Shown: piece after piece, positions 1 to 10,016 of the stretch
Numbering within the stretch: the stretch's first letter is position 1
Layout of the letters: every line of letters begins with the position of its first letter
NCBI GenBank assembly: GCA_038893355.1
Contig: JAWARQ010000014.1
Coordinates: 1 to 10,016, forward strand
DNA from: Sulfolobaceae archaeon
GTDB lineage: Archaea > Thermoproteota > Thermoprotei_A > Sulfolobales > Sulfolobaceae
Reading direction: 5' to 3'
DNA: 10,016 nt
The notes under the pieces: generated by a model
Told to the model about the DNA's origin: nothing
What the model saw: the letters and a program-made list of their open reading frames with translations, nothing else
The model's database searches: none
Translations under genes and position numbers: made by a program

Positions 1-129
<129 letters not shown>

Positions 130-147
130 TTACTCATTGTCTACAGA

Positions 148-162
148 AATATAAATTTTTTT
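148..162 (-). promoter_or_regulatory. BRE/TATA promoter of mcr (leaderless)
   Basis: Minus strand AAAAAAA-TTTATATT; the TATA octamer (155-148) is followed by 21 nt and then the ATG at 126. Confidence 0.7.
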
Positions 163-171
163 AACAATAAG

Positions 172-185
172 ATATTATAATAGTT
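172..185. promoter_or_regulatory. Candidate transcription-factor site ATATTATAATAGTT (copy 1)
   Basis: Identical 14-mer also at 4333-4346; core TATTATAATA is a perfect palindrome; lies upstream of the mcr TATA box. Confidence 0.5.
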
Positions 186-233
186 CAAGCATGTTCAATC
201 ATGAAAAATAAATATAGTATAAATTGTTTAAAC

Positions 234-1685
234 TTACTTCTCACTTATTAAATTCTTCGCTAGCTCTTCAGCTCTGGAGAAATCATATTCCCTATATAAT
301 GCTATTTTTGAAGCTGCCATTGAACCTTCAGCGTGAATCATCCACCCTAACATGTAACCTGTAAAAGGTCCTCCAGCTAATTCTCTAGCTAGTCTTAATA
401 CTTTGAATCTTTCTTCTCCACTATAATTTGGATTTGCCTTAAGATATTTCTCGATAAACGCTCTTTCCTCCGGATTTTTGAAGTCTTCAGTACTAGGCAA
501 TGTGGAGATTATTCCTCCAGTAATATCTACTAGACCTCTCAAGACATTAACGAAGTTTGTATTAGAATATAATTTACCAATATTAGTATATATTGGATTT
601 GGTATAGCAATTCCTGTACTTTGATCTATTAATGCTTCTAATGCGGCTAATCTTGCCCCCATATACATTATTTCCCTATACAATACTATATCCAATATCT
701 CATCTCTAACATGTGACACATTATCTAAACCGTTGACTTTAGCTACTAGCCTTGCAGTTCCTAGATATAGATCTGCTTCGATTATTCTATAAGAAATTGC
801 AGTAAATCTATGATATAATGCGAAAAGATTAGCTAATTCCCCAGCATATTTCCACTCTTTAAACATGAATACTCTTTCCCAGGGTATAAAAACATCATCT
901 AAAATTGTCATTGTTTCTGCTTCTGCATGCCGTGAACTCAATGGTGCATCTTCTCTTGATGGTAAGCCTTCTATTTCTATCATAGGTCTTACAATAAGTT
1001 TTAAACCTTTAGTATTAGTTGGTATTGCAAATGCTACTGCATAATCCTTATCATCCTCAACCATGGTTCTATATGGTAAGAAGATAATTTCGTTCGATGC
1101 GATACTCTGTGTTGTATGAACTTTTGCACCTCTTACAATTATTCCATCATCTCTTACATCTACTATCCTAACATATAGGTCTTTATCGATTTGCTCATGT
1201 GGCCTTTTGGTTCTATCACCCTTTACATCTGTTTGTGCTACGGCTAATGCTAAATCATTTTTTGCAACGTACTCATAATATCTTTTTACTCTTTCAGTAT
1301 AACCCTTATTATTTTCTGCATCCATCTTTTTAGCTACTATAAATAAGGCATGTAATGCATCACTTCCAATAGCCTGTACTATATTAAATAGACCACCACT
1401 AAGCCTTGTAGTCTCTTGAATTATTTTAGATCTATACCATAAATCTTCTGGGGATTTGCATATTTTGTAAAAGCCACTTATTTCACCTAGAGTAGGATCA
1501 TTTATTACTAGTAGCTTTCTTAACTCTTCATTTACATCCCTTAATTCGTAAAATCTTTTAGCGTGGGTAATAGGTATTGATAGTACGGGATGTGTTGTAA
1601 CATCTTCTACCCTCTTTCCCCTATAATAGATTTCTCTACCATCCCTTAAACTATTAAGGTATTCTTTTGAATTTTTTAAAGTCAT
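234..1685 (-). CDS. 4-hydroxybutyryl-CoA dehydratase / 4-hydroxyphenylacetate 3-hydroxylase (AbfD/HpaB) family flavoprotein lacking Fe-S ligands ('type-2' crenarchaeal homolog)
   Basis: Family motifs YLNSLRDGREIYYRG, QTDVKGDR, DGIIVRGAKVHTT, E257-TMTILDDVFIPWERVF, YHR (H292). The CxxxC position reads NIVQA (101-105), HxxxxxxC reads HRFTAISY, and the whole protein has only one Cys (C76). Confidence 0.9.
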   Translation of the reverse strand: MTLKNSKEYLNSLRDGREIYYRGKRVEDVTTHPVLSIPITHAKRFYELRDVNEELRKLLVINDPTLGEISGFYKICKSPEDLWYRSKIIQETTRLSGGLFNIVQAIGSDALHALFIVAKKMDAENNKGYTERVKRYYEYVAKNDLALAVAQTDVKGDRTKRPHEQIDKDLYVRIVDVRDDGIIVRGAKVHTTQSIASNEIIFLPYRTMVEDDKDYAVAFAIPTNTKGLKLIVRPMIEIEGLPSREDAPLSSRHAEAETMTILDDVFIPWERVFMFKEWKYAGELANLFALYHRFTAISYRIIEADLYLGTARLVAKVNGLDNVSHVRDEILDIVLYREIMYMGARLAALEALIDQSTGIAIPNPIYTNIGKLYSNTNFVNVLRGLVDITGGIISTLPSTEDFKNPEERAFIEKYLKANPNYSGEERFKVLRLARELAGGPFTGYMLGWMIHAEGSMAASKIALYREYDFSRAEELAKNLISEK

Positions 1686-1731: not shown

Positions 1732-3159
1732 TTACGACTTCTTTCTTTGATCTACGAAAACTTGTAACTTATATCCAGTCCATATAGCCTCCCCTGGCCT
1801 TAACCACTCTATTTCAATATCATCAGCATTTATCCCTATTCTTGAAGCTAGTATTTCTTTAGCTAATCTTTCATAGTTTTTATCAATATTTTCCTTCCTT
1901 TTACTTTCAATTCTTATTTTAAGCTTATCCATTTCATCTTTATATACAATTATATTAAACATTCCAGTAGTGTCAGGGATTTCATTAATTGCATCTTCTA
2001 TATATACTGGTAACAATATTTTTCCCTTAACTTTAAACAACCATTCTACCCTACCAGGAATGGGTTCTGCAAATCGCATATGTGTTATCCCGAAAACTGG
2101 ATCTGGATCTTTTATAAATTCATTCTTAACATAATCTCCTAAGCTATATCTTATTAACGGCATTGTGAAATGATTAAGTAAGGTAGCTATTAACTCTCCT
2201 CTTTCACCTTCACCTACTGGTTCATCAGTTTTTGGATCCACAACATCAAATATTTCCATATCTTCCCATATTACGAGCTGATTATCAGAGCCAGGAACTT
2301 CAATTGCCATATGTCCATCAGTAGTGCCCCATACATTAATTGCTAGTTTAGCATTAGGATGAACTTTAAATAACTTATGCTTCGTATTTTCAGCTGATGC
2401 ACCACCGTGAAGTAACAATACCTTAAAGGGGGTCTCCCAACCTTGCTCAATAGCTTCCTCTCCTATTAACCTATGTAACCATGGTGTAGTTGCAAAGACA
2501 TCAATTTTCCATAATTTAAATAGTAGCATATGTCTATTCTTCCAACTAAAGAATGTCTCCCCACCTCCTGCAATTGCTGTGGCACCACACCTCCACATTG
2601 CAGTTTCTATTAACGGAGGGCCCCAACTATAAAATCCACTCATATTTAAATAATTTGCATAAACTATTGTAGGTCTTAATCCTGCAAATGTCCATAAATA
2701 TCTAGCCTGACCCTCTTCAAAATAGTCTAACTCTAATTTTCCCCACCCTTGGAATGTTGGCATTCCAGTAGATCCAGAAGTTGCTCCAACAAATCTAATT
2801 CTCTTCGCGAGTTCTGGATGCATGATACTTCCAAATGGAGGGTTTGACTGTATATCTGCCCTTAATTTATCTTTTCTTAATATGGGAATCTTTACAATAT
2901 CATTAACATCCCTTAATTTATCTGGTTCAAATCCATTTTCTTTCCAAAATTTTCTATAAAATGGAATATTTTCCCAAGCCCACTTAACTATCCTTTTTAG
3001 CCTGAATAATTTTATCCTCTCTAGCTCCTCTCTCTTCATTTTCATTATTTTTTCATTCCACAATCTTTCTGAAGGATCTGGTGGATACTCATTTCTTATG
3101 TAACCTTCTTCTCTTAATTCTTTATGAATTGCCTCATATTCTTCTAAAGCACTAATCAT
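1732..3159 (-). CDS. Phenylacetate-CoA ligase (PaaK)-family AMP-forming acyl-CoA ligase; candidate 4-hydroxybutyrate-CoA ligase
   Basis: Motifs [23 protein letters not shown] (P-loop), [25 protein letters not shown]-terminal K...VDQRK. Start moved from the track's TTG at 3204 to ATG at 3159 (475 aa) because TTTTTAAA sits 21 nt upstream of that ATG. Substrate is inferred from context only. Confidence 0.85.
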
Positions 3160-3180
3160 AGATATAAGTTGTATAAGCAT

Positions 3181-3200
3181 TTTAAAAATATAACTGATTT
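3181..3200 (-). promoter_or_regulatory. Promoter of the ligase gene
   Basis: Minus strand AAATCAG-TTATA-TTTTTAAA (TATA 3188-3181), then 21 nt, then ATG at 3159. Confidence 0.7.
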
Positions 3201-3204
3201 TCAA

Positions 3205-4299
3205 TTACTTTGGAATTATTAAACTTCTGATAACCTCACCTTCTTCAAGTAATTTAACTGCGTCATTTATTTCTTCTAATTTAAACTTACCAGTAATTTG
3301 CTTAGATGGGTTAAACTTACCAGTTCTCACTAATTCTACTAATTTTACCATATCTATTCTAGGTCTTCCCCCATAGCTACCTATTATAGATATTCCATTT
3401 CTCACTATTGTTGAAATCCTTAAGGGAACAGTTAAATATGTTGGTGGTAGTCCTATTAAAATTATTTTACCACCAAGTCTTACCATTTCTATCGCATTCA
3501 TAATTGCATCTTGATTCCCTGATGCCTCTATAACTACATCAGCACCTCTAGATAATATCCTTCTTACCTCCTTTACTGGATCTTGTTGTTTAACATTTAT
3601 GACATCAGTGGCACCAAGTTCTAAAGCCTTATCTAACTTCCACTTTTTAGTACCTAGAGCTATTATCCTACCCGCACCTATAACCCTTAAAAGCTGAATT
3701 ATTGATAATCCTACACCTCCTACACCTATCACCACTACTGTATCGCCAGGCTTAATATTTGCGGAGTTTATTGCACCGTATGCAGTAATTCCAGCGCAAC
3801 CTAATATTGCTAGATCTTCTAATTCTTCATTAGAGGAAAAGTTAACATTAACTAATGCATTTTCATGAACTATTGCATATTCCGCAAATCCCCCACCTAA
3901 AAATGCTCTAACTGGTCTACCATCTTTTAATCTTATTCTTGTAGTACCATCAAACATTGTACCTTTAAGTCTTACTGCTGAAAAGACTTCGCATAAATTT
4001 TCATTACCAGATATACAATTTAAGCACTTACCACATGGGTGAATAAAAGTTGAAATAACTTTATCCCCCTCCTTCACTCTAGTTACATTATTGCCGATTT
4101 TCCTAACTATTCCAGCGATTTCATGGCCCGCTATTACTGGAGTAGGTACTGGTGTAAATCCAAAAAATACATTCAGATCAGAATGACATAACCCAGTAGC
4201 TCTCACTTCTAATAGAACCTCATTTTCTTTAGGCTCCTCTATCTCAACATCTTCTATCCTTAAAGGTTCTTTATAGTTGAATAATACTGCAGCCTTCAT
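3205..4299 (-). CDS. Zn-dependent alcohol dehydrogenase (MDR family), succinic semialdehyde reductase (NADPH)-like
   Basis: Catalytic Zn motifs GLCHSD, GHE, LGCAG; structural Zn CGKCLNC-x7-C; GVGGVG nucleotide fold followed by GTKKWK (no acidic residue, consistent with NADP). Closely resembles my recollection of the Metallosphaera succinic semialdehyde reductase throughout (e.g. [33 protein letters not shown]). Confidence 0.88.
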
Positions 4300-4320
4300 A
4301 GTTTCATTATCTTTAAACTT

Positions 4321-4338
4321 CTTAAAAAGCTTATATTA
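4321..4338 (-). promoter_or_regulatory. BRE/TATA promoter of the Zn-ADH gene
   Basis: Minus strand TAATATAAGCTTTTTAAG, then 21 nt, then ATG at 4299. Confidence 0.7.
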
Positions 4339-4346
4339 TAATAGTT
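4333..4346. promoter_or_regulatory. Candidate transcription-factor site ATATTATAATAGTT (copy 2)
   Basis: Identical to 172-185; lies between the divergent ADH and FNR promoters. Confidence 0.5.
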
Positions 4347-4368
4347 ATATCTTAATAGATCACATTAT

Positions 4369-4409: not shown

Positions 4410-5432
4410 ATGAATGAATATGATATAACGATAATAGGAGGAGGACCCACTGGCTTATTTGCTACTTTTTATGCAGGATTAAGGGATATGAAGACACTCC
4501 TTATTGATGGTCAAGAAGAATTAGGAGGGCAATTAGTTTCAATATATCCAGAAAAATATATTTACGATGTTGGCGGATTTCCTAAAGTTCTGGCTTATGA
4601 ATTAGCTCAAAACTTGATAGAGCAAGCAAAAACATTTTCACCAGAAATAAGAGTAAAGGAGTGGGTTGAACAAATTTCAAAATCAGAGGATAGTTTATGG
4701 TTAATTACTACAGATAAGGGTAATATATATAAATCAAGAACAATACTTATTGCGACAGGAATAGGAAAAATTGTACCTAATAGGCTTGGCGTTAAAGGGG
4801 AAATAGAATATGAAGGGAGGGGTGTATATTATAGTGTGAAAAGAAAGAAGGATTTTGAAGGAAAGGATGTCCTGATAGTAGGTGGTGGTGATTCTGCAGT
4901 AGATTGGGCTTTAAATTTATCCACAATTGCAAATTCCGTGACATTAATACATAGAAGGGATAAATTTAGAGCACATGAAAGGAGTGTTACAGAATTATTT
5001 AAGGTCGCTAAGGTCTATCTATGGCATGAATTAAAGGAAATTATAGGAGATGGAAAGTCGGTAAAAAAAGCTATAATCTTTGATAATAGAACAAAGGAGG
5101 AAAAGGTTTTAGATGTAGATGCAGTTATAATAAGTATAGGTCATAAGGGCGATCTAGGAAATTTACCAAAATGGGGAGTTAATATGAAGGGTAGAGAGGT
5201 AATAGTTAACAGTAAAATGGAAACAAATCTTCCAGGGGTATATGCTGCGGGAGATATAGCTTATCAAGAAGGTCTACCGAAAATGAGCTTAATAGCTATC
5301 GGCTTTTCTCAGGCTGCAGTTGCCATAAGTATGGCTAAGAAGTATATAAATCCAGATTCATCAGCCTTTGCGGGTCATAGTTCAGAAATAATGAAGACTA
5401 AGATTAATAATAGTAATTTAAAATTTGAATAA
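4410..5432 (+). CDS. Ferredoxin-NADP(+) reductase, thioredoxin-reductase fold (YumC type)
   Basis: FAD motif [27 protein letters not shown] motifs GGGDSA and [17 protein letters not shown]-terminal GHSS. The redox CxxC of true TrxB is absent (region reads GRGVYYSVK). Confidence 0.88.
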
Positions 5433-5521: not shown

Positions 5522-6010
5522 ATGAGTCTAAAGGTTTATACGTTTGCACGTAAGCCGGTAATTGTAATTAGGGAAAATGAAAAGATAGTTACTGCTGCAA
5601 GGGAAATGAAAAACCATAATATAGGTTCTTTGTTAGTTTTAGATTCACAAGATAAAATTGTCGGAATTATAACTGAAAGGGACATCGTAAGAGCTTTTGC
5701 AGATGAGAGAATAAATGCAGAGGTCAAAGAATACATGACGAGAGATGTTAAAGGTATAAGAATGAATGCAAGTATTTACTCTGCATTAAAGGTAATGATT
5801 GAGAATGGATTTAGGCACTTGCCAGTGTTATCTGATGATAATAAAAAGATTTATGGAATAGTATCAATAAGAGATCTAGTTAGGGGCTTAATTGATTTAG
5901 ATAATGTCTCAGAAAAAGAGGAAGAAGGATTAGAAAGTCAAGTATGCCCAGTATGTGGATTAGAAATTGATGAGTATGGATATTGTGGATGTGGTGCTGG
6001 CTCAGATTAG
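5522..6010 (+). CDS. Tandem CBS-domain protein with C-terminal Cys-rich tail
   Basis: Two CBS repeats (IGSLLV...VGIITERDIV; FRHLPV...GIVSIRDLV), an acidic linker, then CPVC-x9-CGC. Confidence 0.9.
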   Translation: MSLKVYTFARKPVIVIRENEKIVTAAREMKNHNIGSLLVLDSQDKIVGIITERDIVRAFADERINAEVKEYMTRDVKGIRMNASIYSALKVMIENGFRHLPVLSDDNKKIYGIVSIRDLVRGLIDLDNVSEKEEEGLESQVCPVCGLEIDEYGYCGCGAGSD

Positions 6011-6137
6011 AAATTTTAAGCCTAAATTAGGGAAAGTAAGCTTACCCACTGATCCTTGTTTCCTTTTAATAACTTTTGCAGTTTGATTACCTATCGTAGA
6101 GAATAAATTTAATTAAGTTTATCCCCAATTCTTGTTT

Positions 6138-7160
6138 ATGACAAAAGTTAAGCCTATGATTTTTGGAAATTTTTTAAGGTTAATTAAAGGAAGAGCAATT
6201 AAAAAACTCCCCTTAATAGCAGGACACAAATTACTTTATTCTTGTAACTTAAGGTGTAGAATGTGTCCATTTTGGAGAAGAAAAGATGAAAGAATTTTGA
6301 CATTAGAGGAAGAGATAAAAATGATGAATAAATTACAAGAAGCTGGAGTACTCTTTATGGGTTTTGAAGGAGGAGAACCGTTATTAAGAAGTGATTTACC
6401 ACAAATCCTTGAAGAATCAAATAAAAGATTTTACACATCAATAGTTACGAACGGATGGTTATTAAAAGATAAGATAAGTAAAATTAGTGAATATTTAGAC
6501 CATATTTTCGTTTCCATTGATGGTATTGGAGAGACCCATGATAAATTAAGGGGTGTTCAAGGTTCTTTTGACAGAGCTATAGAAGGCATTAAGGAAAGTA
6601 TTAAGAGGGGAATACCAACATCAATTAGCTTTACACTAACTAATGAAAATACAGACGAAGTATTTCAGGTTGTTGATTTAGCTGAAAAATTAGGAATAAC
6701 TATCAGTATTCAAATAGCATATGATTACTCAACCGCAGAAAAAATGTCCCCTAATAAAGAAAAGCTAAAAAGAGTTTTAGAAGGATTATTAGAATTAAAG
6801 AGAAAAGGCAAGCCAATAATAGAAAGTGACTATTACTTTAAGGCTATTATCAATAGTTGGTTTTATAATATTCCTTGGATCTGTAAACCTTGGTTAACGA
6901 TTAATATTGACCCTGAAGGAAGAATAATCCTACCTTGTTATGTATGGAATGAGTATAATGGTAAAGAAAAAATTTGGGAAGTTGATATAATAAAATTATG
7001 GAACGAGTACGATTGGAATAGATATTCTTACTGTAATAGATGTGCTCTAGCATGTTATCTTGAACCTTCTCTCTTTACCTGGAAAAATTTAAGAATTGTT
7101 AAAGAAAAGATTATAAATCCTATGTTTAGTATAATTTATTCATATATGTTAAAATTTTAA
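6138..7160 (+). CDS. Radical SAM protein with C-terminal SPASM/twitch-like Cys cluster; probably the archaeal PTO1314 family, function unknown
   Basis: CNLRCRMC (CxxxCxxC), GGEP, VTNG, VSIDG..HDKLRG; C-terminal CKPW...PC...CNRCALAC; about 340 aa. Start moved from TTG 6132 to ATG 6138, which has an AT-rich TATA-like element (6108-6116) at leaderless spacing. The subfamily name is from recollection. Confidence 0.85.
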   Translation: MTKVKPMIFGNFLRLIKGRAIKKLPLIAGHKLLYSCNLRCRMCPFWRRKDERILTLEEEIKMMNKLQEAGVLFMGFEGGEPLLRSDLPQILEESNKRFYTSIVTNGWLLKDKISKISEYLDHIFVSIDGIGETHDKLRGVQGSFDRAIEGIKESIKRGIPTSISFTLTNENTDEVFQVVDLAEKLGITISIQIAYDYSTAEKMSPNKEKLKRVLEGLLELKRKGKPIIESDYYFKAIINSWFYNIPWICKPWLTINIDPEGRIILPCYVWNEYNGKEKIWEVDIIKLWNEYDWNRYSYCNRCALACYLEPSLFTWKNLRIVKEKIINPMFSIIYSYMLKF

Positions 7161-9122: not shown

Positions 9123-10016
9123 GACCTTGAAAACTTTTTAAAAATTAACTAAACAAAATATCGAATGAGTATAAACTCGTTAACCCAAGAGTATTACGAG
9201 GCGCTTCAAGAAGCACTACAACGAATATCCACAACCTTGAAGACCTTGAGGAGAGACACATTAAAAAGGCTAGTATTAGGGGGAGTAATAGGTAGCACAG
9301 CAGCACAAGAAACAAAAATGGACTACGAAACAGTACTAAAAAACCTAGACAAACTAGCAAACACTAGCCTAATAGAGACAGTAAAAGAGATAGTAAAGAA
9401 CCATCCAACACAACTAATAGTAGACGACACGCATGACCATAAAGCAAGGGCAATATTAGCACCAAGAAACTGCACACAAAAAATATACTACTGCAGAGAA
9501 CACAAAAGATTCGAGCCAGCAATACAGTCATAATAGCAATAAAAGACTTGAAGACAAACGAGACTTACATAGTAGCAATAATACCCTACATACCACAAAA
9601 AGTAGCAGAAATACTCAAAGAAAGGGGTGAAGAGGCAGAGTTCAAGACGAAAATCCAACTGTATCTAGAGGTCTTACCAATACTCTTGAGGGAATTCAAC
9701 GTTGTTGTAACCTCCTTCGACTCTTGGTACGTTAATTCTAAGACTCTTTTGCCTAATATTATCAAGGAACTCAAGGCCAACTTGCTGGCAACTGAGGGTG
9801 GTAGGTCCTTGCTAGTTTGCGAGTTCCCCGAGGGGGAGTAGCTAGTCGAGTACCTAGGTATCCCCATAAAGTTACTCGTAGTCGAGGGTTTGGGTAAGAG
9901 GTACTTCTTCTCAACCAACATAAATGACACCCCTGAGGACATAATTACTGCTTGGGAAAATAGGTGGATATTGAGGTTTTAATTAGGGAGTTGAAGGCTT
10001 TAGGGTTAGAAAAGGG
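9123..10016 (+). mobile_element. Degenerate Sulfolobus insertion sequence, ISC1217-like (ISNCY/IS4-like DDE); right end outside the window
   Basis: Fragmented DDE transposase and a base-composition shift from the host DNA. The left end is placed tentatively at GACCTTGAAAAC (9123), upstream of a TATA (9135-9143); the partner inverted repeat is not visible. The family name is from recollection of the protein. Confidence 0.75.
9165..10016 (+). pseudogene. Transposase pseudogene
   Basis: DDE motifs LIVDDT, SFDSWY and RW-IEVLIRELK are split by a frameshift near 9528, an in-frame TAG at 9839-9841 and a second frameshift near 9968. Confidence 0.88.

Follow-up and report, generated by a model that had tools for sequence, protein, structure and literature searches.

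A type-2 4-hydroxybutyryl-CoA dehydratase paralogue lacking cluster cysteines carries an invariant glutamate at a candidate catalytic-base position in a Sulfolobaceae archaeon

Introduction

Both archaeal 4-hydroxybutyrate CO2-fixation cycles have 4-hydroxybutyryl-CoA dehydratase (4HBD) as their signature enzyme, the presence of which is used to score genomes for autotrophy. For the C. aminobutyricum enzyme, T190, E257, Y296 and E455 are named as important in the accessible part of a preprint (bioRxiv 10.1101/2020.02.05.935528), which also gives T190/T194, E257/E260 and H292 as residues of catalysis in AbfD/N. maritimus 4HBD, and assigns protonation of the flavin semiquinone to the E260/T194 pair. 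In M. sedula, a second 4HBD candidate, Msed_1220, is tabulated as not up-regulated and "not determined", and the activity of the putative ligase Msed_1422 is likewise tabulated as "not determined", in the accessible text of PMC7078158.

A second type of the protein, type-2 4-BUDH, known from Crenarchaeota and Aigarchaeota, has been described from Calditenuis aerorheumensis (PMC4681859). According to the accessible text of that paper, an aigarchaeote without a type-1 gene transcribes its type-2 gene very highly, and the type-2 protein was proposed to be possibly functional. The same text characterizes the type by a conserved His292 and absent cluster cysteines, features also found in the protein analyzed here, to which an Aigarchaeota protein is 64% identical; it mentions the His and the missing Cys only, and not the Glu453/Tyr299 pair presented below. 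Our literature search, which covered such sources in part, found no account of this pair or of an alternation between type-1 and type-2 genes next to a single ligase orthologue. An active-site hypothesis for the type-2 clade, comprising E453, Y299, H292, E257 and T192, and a genomic argument from this alternation are what the present analysis adds.

Results

The window, by which we mean the whole analyzed stretch of 10,016 nucleotides from a Sulfolobaceae archaeon, carries at 234..1685 on the minus strand a gene for a 483-aa protein with HpaB_N and HpaB_C domains, assigned as a type-2 4HBD paralogue from Pfam, PDB matches and an AF2 model. The Pfam search gave PF11794 at 3.6e-88 and PF03241 at 5.8e-55, and the closest PDB entries by sequence were 6vjr (1.3e-67) and 1u8v (5.9e-66). 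The reading frame is intact, and is identical in the contigs of an independent run over positions 98-1209 and 1239-2731. A single-sequence AlphaFold model (pLDDT 33) was discarded in favor of an alignment-based AF2 model with a pLDDT of 95.1. Comparison of this model by VIA-align gave Z scores of 48.1 to 1u8v, about 44 to HpaB and about 23 to acyl-CoA dehydrogenases (ACADs), so that the HpaB_N + HpaB_C fold is nearest to the solved 4HBDs (TM 0.93-0.94, Z ~48). The likeness to AbfD/type-1 4HBD extends over the full length, with 476 residues aligned at an rmsd of 1.8 Å and 30% identity. PF11794 was matched in this genome by the window gene and by one HpaB-like paralogue only, the latter lying elsewhere beside an extradiol-dioxygenase-like gene. 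Since the metagenome-assembled genome is 83.76% complete, a type-1 gene may be merely unassembled.

The whole protein contains a single cysteine, C76. HMMER alignment to 1u8v and 6vjr gave C99>L99, C103>A105, H292=H292, Y296>A296, C299>Y299, K300>R300 and E257=E257; of the four AbfD cluster ligands only H292 is thus retained, and the other three have given way to L99, A105 and Y299, which bears out the claim of cluster loss in the initial annotation. In the HMMER and MAFFT alignments, the segment L99...A105 (1371..1391, minus strand), replacing the ligands Cys99 and Cys103, has a two-residue insertion relative to CFQ--RC. The segment H292...A296...Y299-R300 (789..812, minus strand) keeps the ligand His and has Ala for Tyr296 and an invariant Tyr for the ligand Cys299. 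Two further residues of AbfD are preserved in these alignments and invariant among homologues, Glu257 (915..917, minus strand; AbfD E257, N. maritimus E260) and Thr192 (1110..1112, minus strand; AbfD T190, N. maritimus T194, the flavin N5 contact). We found that T192, E257, H292, A296, Y299, R300 and AEGS are invariant in 119/119 close homologues.

The protein combines a conserved His292 with absent cluster cysteines, the features that define type 2, and groups with Aigarchaeota and Caldarchaeales members with an SH-like support of 98 (FastTree). By sequence, the window clade is the already described "type-2 4-hydroxybutyryl-CoA dehydratase".

The loop motif GYMLGWMIHAEGSMAASK, spanning residues 443-460 (306..359, minus strand; located by script and in the AF2 model), consists of the end of helix 440-452, E-G-S, and helix 456-466. 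The block 451-460 has a pLDDT of only 75, the lowest within the core of the model. The position and motif that the annotation had reported for this HAEGS loop were reproduced by script, and E453 is present in 119/119 full-length close homologues. H451-A452-E453-G454-S455 is, moreover, invariant in 56/56 aligned homologues at identities of at least 50%. These two counts indicate that the motif is more than chance. In the HMMER alignments to 1u8v and 6vjr, ...YRTE-SMHGAGSPQAQR of AbfD pairs with GYMLGWMIHAEGSMAASK, and the Glu noted directly before GS stands opposite AbfD Ala460; its codon lies at 327..329 (minus strand; ttc on the plus strand), and its match to the ACAD catalytic Glu is a proposed one. 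It had also been suggested that the Glu of AbfD is replaced by Trp448. The absence of an acid there held, as positions 447 and 448 (342..347, minus strand) are variable in the clade and, going by the commonest residues in the table of 119 close homologues, never acidic. The identity of the replacing residue depends on the alignment: HMMER sets AbfD E455 opposite G447 and makes W448 a one-residue insertion, and an ungapped MAFFT alignment places E455 opposite W448.

We examined the covariation of E453 with the cluster ligands, as had been proposed, in 101 representatives scored for C103 and C299. E453 occurred in 0/47 two-Cys, 1/6 one-Cys and 21/48 zero-Cys sequences, and so does covary with Cys loss. 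Both E453 and Y299 were found in 17 representatives, E453 alone in 5, Y299 alone in none and neither in 79. Compared with the catalytic set of AbfD, the equivalents of Thr190 and Glu257 are invariant, Tyr296 has become Ala and Glu455 Gly/Trp, and an invariant Tyr and Glu have appeared at 299 and 453. These data suggest that the lost Tyr296 and Glu455 of AbfD reappear as Y299 and E453, which would make the pair, as judged by alignment, a coupled relocation of Tyr and Glu.

We compared the loop with those of ACADs, of which this genome encodes four, with loops reading IYEGAN, TYEGTN and IGEGTD. If the last helix is ungapped, the VIA-align ranges bring model residue 453 onto pig MCAD 376, rat SCAD 368 and human SCAD 392, which we take to be the numbers of the ACAD catalytic bases; the range arithmetic (1udy, 1jqi, 2vig, 8sgs) reaches these numbers only with such an ungapped alignment. 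The pattern E/A-G-[ST]-x-x-x-[QS]-[RK] is common to both families and fits the same register. The proposal that the Glu is in register with the ACAD base agrees with both observations, and E453 may well occupy the ACAD catalytic-base position. C-terminal hhalign comparisons gave the E-to-E register in 2/3 windows, at non-significant scores (E 0.06-0.12, probability <=1%), and full-length hhalign of the family against three ACADs of this genome (probability 27.6%) ended at residue 404, before the loop. The window protein shares with pig MCAD (1udy), rat SCAD (1jqi) and human SCAD (2vig) the three-domain fold (Z 22.7-23.6, rmsd 3.3-3.4 Å, 322-328 residues aligned), a Glu in a helix-E-G-[ST]-helix loop at the presumed equivalent position and, likely, an acyl-CoA substrate. 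It differs from them in its low identity (12-16%), in about 45 additional residues between the GG motif and the EGS loop, in extra invariant His, Tyr and Glu residues, and in the lack of an ACAD Pfam match (PF02771, PF02770 and PF00441, none at E <= 0.001).

The genes around the type-2 gene lie in the order Zn-dependent alcohol dehydrogenase (ADH), CoA ligase, type-2 gene and malonyl-CoA/succinyl-CoA reductase, the first three being co-directional and nearly abutting. A PaaK-family acid-CoA ligase (1732..3204, minus strand), identified by profile searches and conserved in the family as a single-copy orthologue, lies directly upstream of the type-2 gene with a 46-bp spacer, and is abutted by the ADH (3205..4299, minus strand; profile searches), a candidate succinic semialdehyde reductase by synteny. 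Both the ligase-type-2 and the ADH-ligase junctions were found in contigs of another study with 0 differences. Downstream and co-directional are the N-terminal 42 codons of the reductase (1..126, minus strand), cut by the contig end and identical at 38/42 positions to PDB 4dpk (E 2.3e-18). The contig-end 127 nt carrying this start also ends another contig (C3) and is covered about twice as deeply in another run, which points to a branch or repeat and weakens the link to the reductase. A divergent thioredoxin-reductase-like flavoprotein gene (4410..5432, plus strand; profile searches) is syntenic with the island in the family genome G009, where a type-2 gene is lacking. On this gene content, the four genes from the ADH to the reductase constitute a 4-hydroxybutyrate-branch island. 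The 3HP/4HB cycle is documented only in part: the genome also contains methylmalonyl-CoA mutase and carboxyltransferase, and its best match to the acryloyl-CoA reductase equivalog reached 175.6 bits against a 500-bit cut-off.

The best solved relative of the ligase is 2-hydroxyisobutyryl-CoA synthetase (6hdw, 7.6e-37). We also considered an aromatic-acid pathway composed of a PaaK-like ligase and an HpaB-like hydroxylase, and rejected it because the ligase is nearest to 6hdw and its orthologues adjoin type-1 4HBD genes.

Orthologues of the ligase, 75-81% identical, are present in 42/47 family genomes, this genome counted. Comparison of positions by hand placed the ligase less than 200 bp from a homologue 35-38% identical to the window protein (type-1) in six genomes (G005, G011, G083, G109, G013 and G158), and 2.7 kb from it in G009 and G045. 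This homologue keeps CFQ--RC, YHRQGYGGCK and ESxHGAGSP at 13/13 loci checked. That the same ligase orthologue adjoins the Fe-S dehydratase in six genomes points to 4-hydroxybutyryl-CoA as the ligase product. The G009 island comprises, in this order, the type-1 gene, the thioredoxin-reductase-like gene, ADH (71%), ligase (77%) and reductase (81%), with no gene between the last two. In the genome G085, the ligase (77%) and a 3-hydroxybutyryl-CoA dehydrogenase are followed by a type-2 gene that is 70% identical and has the same loop; the ADH orthologue of this island is 64% identical, and G085 also has a type-1 gene. The type-2 gene thus fills the slot downstream of the conserved ligase that the Fe-S dehydratase fills in relatives. 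Many family genomes hold both types, with the type-2 gene far from the ligase. The type-2 genes of most family genomes are only 53-59% identical to the window gene, the nearest relatives of which come from metagenomes and Caldarchaeales (64% identity).

The Cys-less type-2 paralogue is widespread, and was found at 75 genome loci in Sulfolobales, Desulfurococcales, Thermoproteales, Caldarchaeales, Nitrososphaerales and Thermoplasmata. A gene of acyl-CoA metabolism lies within 7 kb at 51/75 of these loci; AMP-forming acyl-CoA synthetase was present at 40/75, and within 500 bp at 18/75. Among beta-oxidation neighbours, ACAD was found at 19 of the 75 loci, hydratase at 18, 3-hydroxyacyl-CoA dehydrogenase at 11 and thiolase at 8. 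The ligase family of the window was found at 0/75 distant type-2 loci. In view of the fatty-acid beta-oxidation genes beside the clade in Thermoplasmata and other lineages, a dehydrogenase or isomerase fits this context equally well.

Discussion

The comparisons above indicate, as far as alignments and a model can, that GYMLGWMIHAEGSMAASK is the active-site loop of a "type-2" Fe-S-free paralogue with the AbfD/4HBD fold. Our best reading, held tentatively and at somewhat less than even confidence, is that the window protein works as a 4-hydroxybutyryl-CoA dehydratase/isomerase without a cluster, in which E453 is the Calpha base. The enzyme would bind FAD and act on the product of the upstream ligase, an acyl-CoA that is most likely 4-hydroxybutyryl-CoA, converting it and/or vinylacetyl-CoA to crotonyl-CoA without a cluster. 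By analogy with the equivalent Glu of ACADs, E453 would take the Calpha proton, and, as in AbfD, the Cbeta hydrogen may be handled by FAD together with the retained T192/E257 pair. The cavity left by the cluster would be filled by H292 and the newly acquired Y299, which would stand in for the Lewis-acid iron as the acid acting on the C4 hydroxyl. The residue inventory of AbfD (His, Tyr, two Glu and Thr) would thereby be kept, with the Tyr and one Glu moved.

Such a protein resembles AbfD/type-1 4HBD in its fold, in the kept equivalents of His292, Glu257 and Thr190, in its place beside a CoA-activating enzyme and in occupying the genomic slot of the archaeal Fe-S enzyme. It is unlike them in having L99, A105 and Y299 for the Cys ligands, Ala for Tyr296, Glu453 for Ala460, no acidic counterpart of Glu455, and a one-residue insertion before the loop. 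Because the type-2 gene sits where relatives keep the metal enzyme, it may encode a metal-free version of this carbon-fixation step, and could act as an isoenzyme of the Fe-S dehydratase that is independent of oxygen and iron. We regard as possible, but less likely than not, the proposal that this sublineage of type-2 proteins is a genuine 4-hydroxybutyryl-CoA dehydratase that is Fe-S-free and insensitive to oxygen. The "impossible" gamma-dehydration would then be achieved by FAD alone, a Glu recruited to the ACAD base position removing the alpha proton and a His/Tyr pair replacing the Lewis-acid iron, and the protein would, behind the same ligase, alternate with the Fe-S enzyme or back it up, much as fumarase C does for fumarase A. 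Abstracting a beta-hydrogen that is not activated and expelling a hydroxyl is difficult chemistry if no Lewis acid assists, which weighs against a cluster-free dehydratase. Also counting against it are the chance that a type-1 gene is unassembled here, the distance of the type-2 gene from the ligase in genomes with both types, the type-1 gene of G085, the beta-oxidation neighbours in other lineages, the absence of the ligase family from the 75 distant loci, the M. sedula table entries, the shared contig end before the reductase and the low pLDDT of the loop. A precedent for flavin-only C4 elimination from an acyl-CoA in the ACAD superfold is BbuA, gamma-butyrobetainyl-CoA TMA-lyase, an ACAD-like enzyme with flavin as its only cofactor, described in the accessible part of a preprint (bioRxiv 10.1101/2021.01.25.428109) as eliminating a C4 leaving group to give crotonyl-CoA. 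As described there, however, BbuA is set apart from the window protein by being a true ACAD family member that is about 10% identical to 4HBD, and by releasing trimethylamine and not hydroxide.

A close rival, which we consider possible but clearly short of probable, is that the protein performs no dehydration and is a redox flavoenzyme or plain isomerase with E453 as the sole essential base, that is, an acyl-CoA dehydrogenase (e.g. butyryl-CoA to crotonyl-CoA), an enoyl-CoA reductase or a 3-enoyl-CoA to 2-enoyl-CoA isomerase. The presumed ACAD base position of E453, the common fold (Z ~23 over model residues 33-470), a precomputed PF02770 (ACAD middle domain) match in some homologues, and the beta-oxidation genes and acyl-CoA synthetases around the clade are all consistent with ACAD-type chemistry. 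Vinylacetyl-CoA is isomerised by ACADs via their Glu, and AbfD after oxygen damage retains vinylacetyl-CoA isomerase activity, both of which favor this alternative. Beyond crotonyl-CoA, butyrate oxidation and the 4-hydroxybutyrate branch use the same enzymes; the G085 operon, which includes a 3-hydroxybutyryl-CoA dehydrogenase, therefore fits this alternative too, and the coexistence of type-1 and type-2 genes in many genomes suggests different jobs. However, an ACAD needs one base, yet H292, E257, T192, Y299 and R300 are all invariant here, three of them being AbfD catalytic residues; no ETF gene was seen among the 15 largest conserved neighbour clusters, and in six genomes the same ligase orthologue has the Fe-S dehydratase as its neighbour, which points to 4-hydroxybutyryl-CoA as its product. 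With ordinary ACAD genes adjoining the type-2 gene at 19/75 loci and four ACADs in this genome, a second dehydrogenase is not obviously needed. The initial annotation had predicted ACAD-like chemistry rather than radical dehydration; we do not follow it in this exclusion, because T192, E257 and H292 are invariant, Tyr296 and Glu455 appear to have been re-established as Y299 and E453, and the gene stands in the Fe-S dehydratase slot.

The Pfam domain names and the fold (2yyg/2yyj and 6qyi, Z ~42-45) liken the protein to the 4-hydroxyphenylacetate 3-monooxygenase HpaB, and a two-component monooxygenase, in which reduced flavin and O2 hydroxylate a possibly CoA-tethered substrate, could find a candidate partner in the divergent flavoprotein reductase-like gene. 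The best-supported split (FastTree) does not separate the E453 clades from HpaB-like sequences, and 3/14 HpaB-like sequences also have Glu at this position. We nevertheless judge a monooxygenase improbable, as the protein scores far under the NCBIfam HpaB equivalog cut-offs (216.2 vs 480.2 bits and 159.1 vs 885.2 bits) and, in alignment to 2yyg, has I106, A110 and V149 for R100, Y104 and H142 of T. thermophilus HpaB. These Arg, Tyr and His are presumably the phenol-binding residues. Moreover, the context of the window gene is acyl-CoA metabolism, the 15 neighbour clusters scanned contained no flavin-reductase family, the thioredoxin-reductase-like gene keeps its synteny in G009 without a type-2 gene, and the real HpaB-like paralogue of this genome is located elsewhere. 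Still less likely, in our estimation, is a chance outcome of rearrangement or transfer that left a protein with no catalytic role in this pathway beside the ligase, as might be read from the metagenomic and Caldarchaeales relatives being nearer than the type-2 genes of the family, from the G009 island lacking a type-2 gene, and from an IS fragment 8 kb from the type-2 gene within the window. The ligase-type-2 pair recurs in G085 (77% and 70% identity), the active-site residues are strictly conserved, and the open frame is intact and confirmed by the independent run, all of which argue against mere chance.

If the window protein is indeed a cluster-free dehydratase, it would represent a new route to radical-type dehydration and would supply synthetic CO2-fixation and 4-hydroxybutyrate pathways with an enzyme that withstands oxygen; predictions of autotrophy would also shift, for Aigarchaeota among others. 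Type-2 proteins are currently annotated as putative dehydratase or putative aromatic hydroxylase; if the enzyme is ACAD-like instead, many database names would be wrong.

Predicted active-site residues of the type-2 protein

The type-2 gene (234..1685, minus strand) is an ORF of 483 residues, and C76 is the sole cysteine of its product. Pfam searches with the protein returned HpaB_N (3.6e-88) and HpaB C-terminal (5.8e-55) domains and no acyl-CoA dehydrogenase (ACAD) domain, and the closest solved structures by sequence were the 4-hydroxybutyryl-CoA dehydratases (AbfD) 6vjr (1.3e-67) and 1u8v (5.9e-66). In alignments to these two structures, the AbfD cluster ligands C99, C103 and C299 are replaced by L99, A105 and Y299, Y296 and K300 are replaced by A296 and R300, and H292 and E257 are retained. 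The loop motif GYMLGWMIHAEGSMAASK was located by script at residues 443-460 (306-359, minus strand), with the Glu453 codon at 327-329 (minus strand). Thus, the initial annotation had correctly described the position of the motif, the Glu directly before GS and the replacement of the Cys ligands. Since LGWMIHAEGSMAASK of the type-2 protein aligns opposite the AbfD loop TE-SMHGAGSPQAQR, Glu453 corresponds to Ala460 of AbfD. The annotation had also paired AbfD Glu455 with Trp448; the loss of the acid was confirmed, and the exact partner differed between alignments, being W448 itself in the ungapped MAFFT alignment and G447 with W448 inserted in that of HMMER.

Structural model and the position of Glu453

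An alignment-based AlphaFold model of the type-2 protein had a pLDDT of 95.1 and a pTM of 0.93, the block 451-460 being the weakest in the model core (pLDDT 75). In the model, the motif comprises the end of helix 440-452, then E-G-S, then helix 456-466. Foldseek/VIA-align ranked AbfD as the top match (TM 0.93-0.94, Z 48.1, rmsd 1.8 A), followed by HpaB monooxygenases (Z about 40-45) and by ACADs (Z 22.4-23.9 over model residues about 33-470). Provided that the last helix is ungapped, model residue 453 falls on residue 376 of pig MCAD 1udy (ranges 33..470 and 44..393), residue 368 of rat SCAD 1jqi (33..472 and 38..387) and, by the same range arithmetic, residue 392 of human SCAD 2vig and 8sgs, which we take to be the numbers of the catalytic Glu. 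The ACADs encoded by the window's own genome carry IYEGAN, TYEGTN and IGEGTD. A full-length profile comparison of the type-2 family with these ACADs stopped aligning at residue 404, and a local C-terminal comparison placed WMIHAEGS opposite VMKIYEGA in two of three windows, without significance. In the model, Glu453 likely occupies the position of the ACAD catalytic base, as proposed in the initial annotation.

Conservation and covariation

A word-indexed homologue search, in which 8000 candidates were scored, gave 3109 matches at E <= 0.001. The best 120 of these were 50-100% identical to the type-2 protein, and H451, A452, E453, G454 and S455 were invariant among the 56 that were aligned. 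With an exhaustive phmmer search against 50%-identity representatives, 2684 matches reached E <= 0.001, and the best 150 were kept. The joint alignment, from which 50 of 270 proteins were left out on length, held 220 proteins of 430-560 residues, namely 119 close homologues and 101 full-length representatives. T192, E257, H292, A296, Y299, R300, A452, E453, G454 and S455 were present in all 119 close homologues and H451 in 118, and positions 447 and 448 were variable. Glu453 is accordingly conserved among the close homologues.

The proposed covariation of the EGS motif with Cys loss was also observed. When C103 and C299 were scored, the poorly aligned C99 column being left out, Glu453 occurred in none of the 47 representatives with both ligands, 1 of 6 with one and 21 of 48 with none. 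Among all 101 representatives, 17 had both Tyr299 and Glu453, 5 Glu alone, 0 Tyr alone and 79 neither. On an unrooted FastTree tree of 108 rows related by descent, a branch with support of 100 separated all two-Cys sequences from all Glu453 sequences; Glu453 required at least five changes, and Glu was also found in 3 of 14 HpaB-like rows. Because of this split and the kinship of the rows, the covariation reflects largely one old split with few independent events.

Alternation of type-1 and type-2 genes beside one ligase

In the window, the type-2 gene is preceded by a co-directional PaaK-family ligase gene (1732-3204, minus strand; spacer 46 bp), itself preceded by a co-directional Zn-ADH gene (3205-4299, minus strand; spacer 0 bp). 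Downstream lies the start of a malonyl-CoA/succinyl-CoA reductase gene (1-126, minus strand), whose 42 residues are identical to 4dpk at 38 (E 2.3e-18, versus 5.5e-05 to an aspartate-semialdehyde dehydrogenase). The nearest solved relative of the ligase is 2-hydroxyisobutyryl-CoA synthetase, a short hydroxy-acid enzyme (7.6e-37).

Ligase orthologues, 75-81% identical, occur in 42 of 47 family genomes including the window's own. The type-2 query detected two homologue classes in these genomes, one 50-71% identical (type-2) and the other 35-38% identical and about 500-546 residues long. The latter is the Fe-S type-1 enzyme, since CFQ--RC, YHRQGYGGCK and ESxHGAGSP were present at all 13 loci checked. 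When coordinates of the separate homologue searches were compared by hand, the ligase and the type-1 gene were separated by 101-151 bp in six genomes (G005, G011, G083, G109, G013 and G158; the type-1 assignment in G083, G109 and G158 is by identity and length only), the ligase being upstream and co-directional in the first four. The distance was 2.7 kb in G009 and G045 and 7.5 kb in G007, and in the other family genomes the ligase was far from the type-1 gene or on a different contig. The G009 island has the order type-1, TrxR-like (73%), ADH (71%), ligase (77%) and reductase (81%), with no gene between the last two; compared with the window, it is the same island minus the type-2 gene and plus the type-1 gene. 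G085 has a 3-hydroxybutyryl-CoA dehydrogenase gene, then the ligase (77%) and, a few bases further on, a type-2 gene (70%; loop GYMLGWMIHAEGSVAASK), together with a divergent ADH gene (64%). In gene order, this matches a Metallosphaera sedula cluster of putative 4-hydroxybutyryl-CoA synthetase, 3-hydroxybutyryl-CoA dehydrogenase and succinic semialdehyde reductase, as given in the part of PMC7078158 consulted. Thus, downstream of one ligase orthologue, some genera carry the Fe-S enzyme, and the window's genome and G085 carry the Cys-less one.

The window's own genome (83.76% complete) yielded no homologue besides the type-2 gene itself and a single HpaB-like paralogue. The paralogue (494 aa) has the loop ...RFSRGDPTIR, with no Glu at the 453 position, and overlaps (1477-2961 of locus L002, contig C6) the end of an ORF judged by eye to be extradiol-dioxygenase-like (542-1489); these two genes probably encode a genuine aromatic hydroxylase and a dioxygenase. 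On contig C10 of G056, type-1 and type-2 genes (63754-65187 and 68518-69906) are 3.3 kb apart. In G010 (99% complete), the searches detected no type-1 gene and no ligase, and the type-2 gene (C1 2305166-2306314, locus L093) is broken up, with residues 3-391 in one frame and 391-479 in another.

Neighbors across the type-2 clade

The clade was found at 75 genome loci, in Sulfolobales, Desulfurococcales, Acidilobaceae, Vulcanisaeta, Pyrobaculum, Caldarchaeales, Nitrososphaerales, Nitrosocaldus, Thermoplasmata, Marsarchaeota and others. ORFs within 7 kb of the 75 genes were clustered, and cluster representatives were scanned against Pfam. The neighbors included AMP-forming acyl-CoA synthetase (40 loci), ACAD (19), enoyl-CoA hydratase (18), SDR (17), ABC ATPase (13), 3-hydroxyacyl-CoA dehydrogenase (11), MFS transporter (11) and thiolase (8). 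An acyl-CoA synthetase lay less than 500 bp from the type-2 gene at 18 loci, on the same strand at 6, and no homologue of the window's PaaK-type ligase was found in the 75 loci. Since at least one acyl-CoA gene occurred within 7 kb at 51 of the 75 loci, the type-2 substrate is very probably an acyl-CoA. At six loci from Desulfurococcales and Sulfolobales MAGs (L012, L014-L016, L123 and L124), a five-gene branched-chain-amino-acid-type ABC importer is followed directly by the type-2 gene, with acyl-CoA synthetase and SDR genes on its other side, suggesting that these genes form a unit for the uptake and breakdown of some organic acid.

Possible function of the type-2 protein

Besides the ligands, AbfD residues T190, E257, Y296 and E455 are reported as important, and the E260/T194 pair of the Nitrosopumilus maritimus enzyme has been put forward as the proton source for the flavin semiquinone (bioRxiv 10.1101/2020.02.05.935528, in the part consulted). 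The equivalents of the AbfD Thr, Glu257 and His292 are invariant in the type-2 clade, and the Tyr and second Glu appear, from the alignments, relocated to 299 and 453 rather than lost. Given these residues and the genomic context, we tentatively favor a cluster-free AbfD reaction on 4-hydroxybutyryl-CoA and/or vinylacetyl-CoA. In such a reaction, Glu453 would act like the ACAD base and abstract the alpha proton, the beta hydrogen would be handled by FAD with T192/E257, and H292/Y299 would replace iron in protonating the leaving hydroxyl. A precedent is BbuA, a flavin-only C4 elimination to crotonyl-CoA (bioRxiv 10.1101/2021.01.25.428109, in the part consulted). A close rival, which we consider only slightly less likely, is the proposal of the initial annotation that the protein is an ACAD, reductase or isomerase instead of a radical dehydratase. 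This proposal is favored by the chemical difficulty of cluster-free dehydration, by the beta-oxidation genes that are neighbors clade-wide, and by the many genomes that hold both types with the type-2 gene away from the ligase; the additional invariant residues and the alternation beside one ligase orthologue argue against it.

A canonical HpaB monooxygenase was considered and rejected, as the NCBIfam HpaB equivalogs gave only 216 versus 480 bits and 159 versus 885. R100, Y104 and H142 of Thermus thermophilus HpaB, presumably phenol-binding, align with I106, A110 and V149. A monooxygenase function is unlikely in our view, and a non-functional or chance-placed gene even more so. The clade has been published as a biochemically uncharacterised "type-2" 4-hydroxybutyryl-CoA dehydratase with conserved His292 and without the cluster cysteines, and its very high transcription in an aigarchaeote lacking a type-1 gene suggests that it is possibly functional (PMC4681859, in the part consulted). 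In a full-text literature search, we found neither the Glu453/Tyr299 pair at AbfD Ala460/Cys299 nor the type-1/type-2 alternation beside one ligase; the invariant pair and the alternation are thus apparently new, an earlier mention being possible.

Contig end and other features of the window

The first 127 nt of the window, at the contig start, recur unchanged but inverted as the end of contig C3 (L085 1485-1611), and in a sequencing run of another study this piece had a depth of 12.1 versus 5.5 for the adjoining piece. The shared piece and doubled depth indicate a reductase gene with two upstream contexts or two copies, and the shared 127 nt point to an assembly-graph branch from two gene copies or two strain arrangements. 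The same run carried window pieces 98-1209, 1239-2731 and 2751-4361 with 0 differences, so the type-2/ligase/ADH order is not a one-sample assembly artefact.

The ligase gene may begin downstream of its TTG at 3204, with the true start perhaps about 15-20 codons further in, because in many orthologues a match beginning at query residue 3-7 runs through one or two in-frame TAG/TAA, and in others the match starts no earlier than residue 14-17. By eye, the spacers 1686-1731 and 127-233 hold A/T-rich TATA-like boxes on the coding strand (TTAATATAAAT and AAATTTATATTT), about 25-38 nt ahead of the ATG of the type-2 and reductase genes, so that transcription of the type-2 gene may start from a promoter of its own, independently of the ligase's. 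A radical-SAM protein with a DUF3463 C-terminal domain (6132-7160, plus strand) adjoins a two-CBS-domain protein with a Cys-rich tail (5522-6010), and G018 and G007 have CBS homologues beside the type-1 dehydratase gene. At the window's far end, two adjacent ORFs (9165-9533 and 9548-9841, plus strand) match successive stretches (2-125 and 135-230 of 327) of PF04693, the transposase family of archaeal ISC1217, and look like a broken IS copy.
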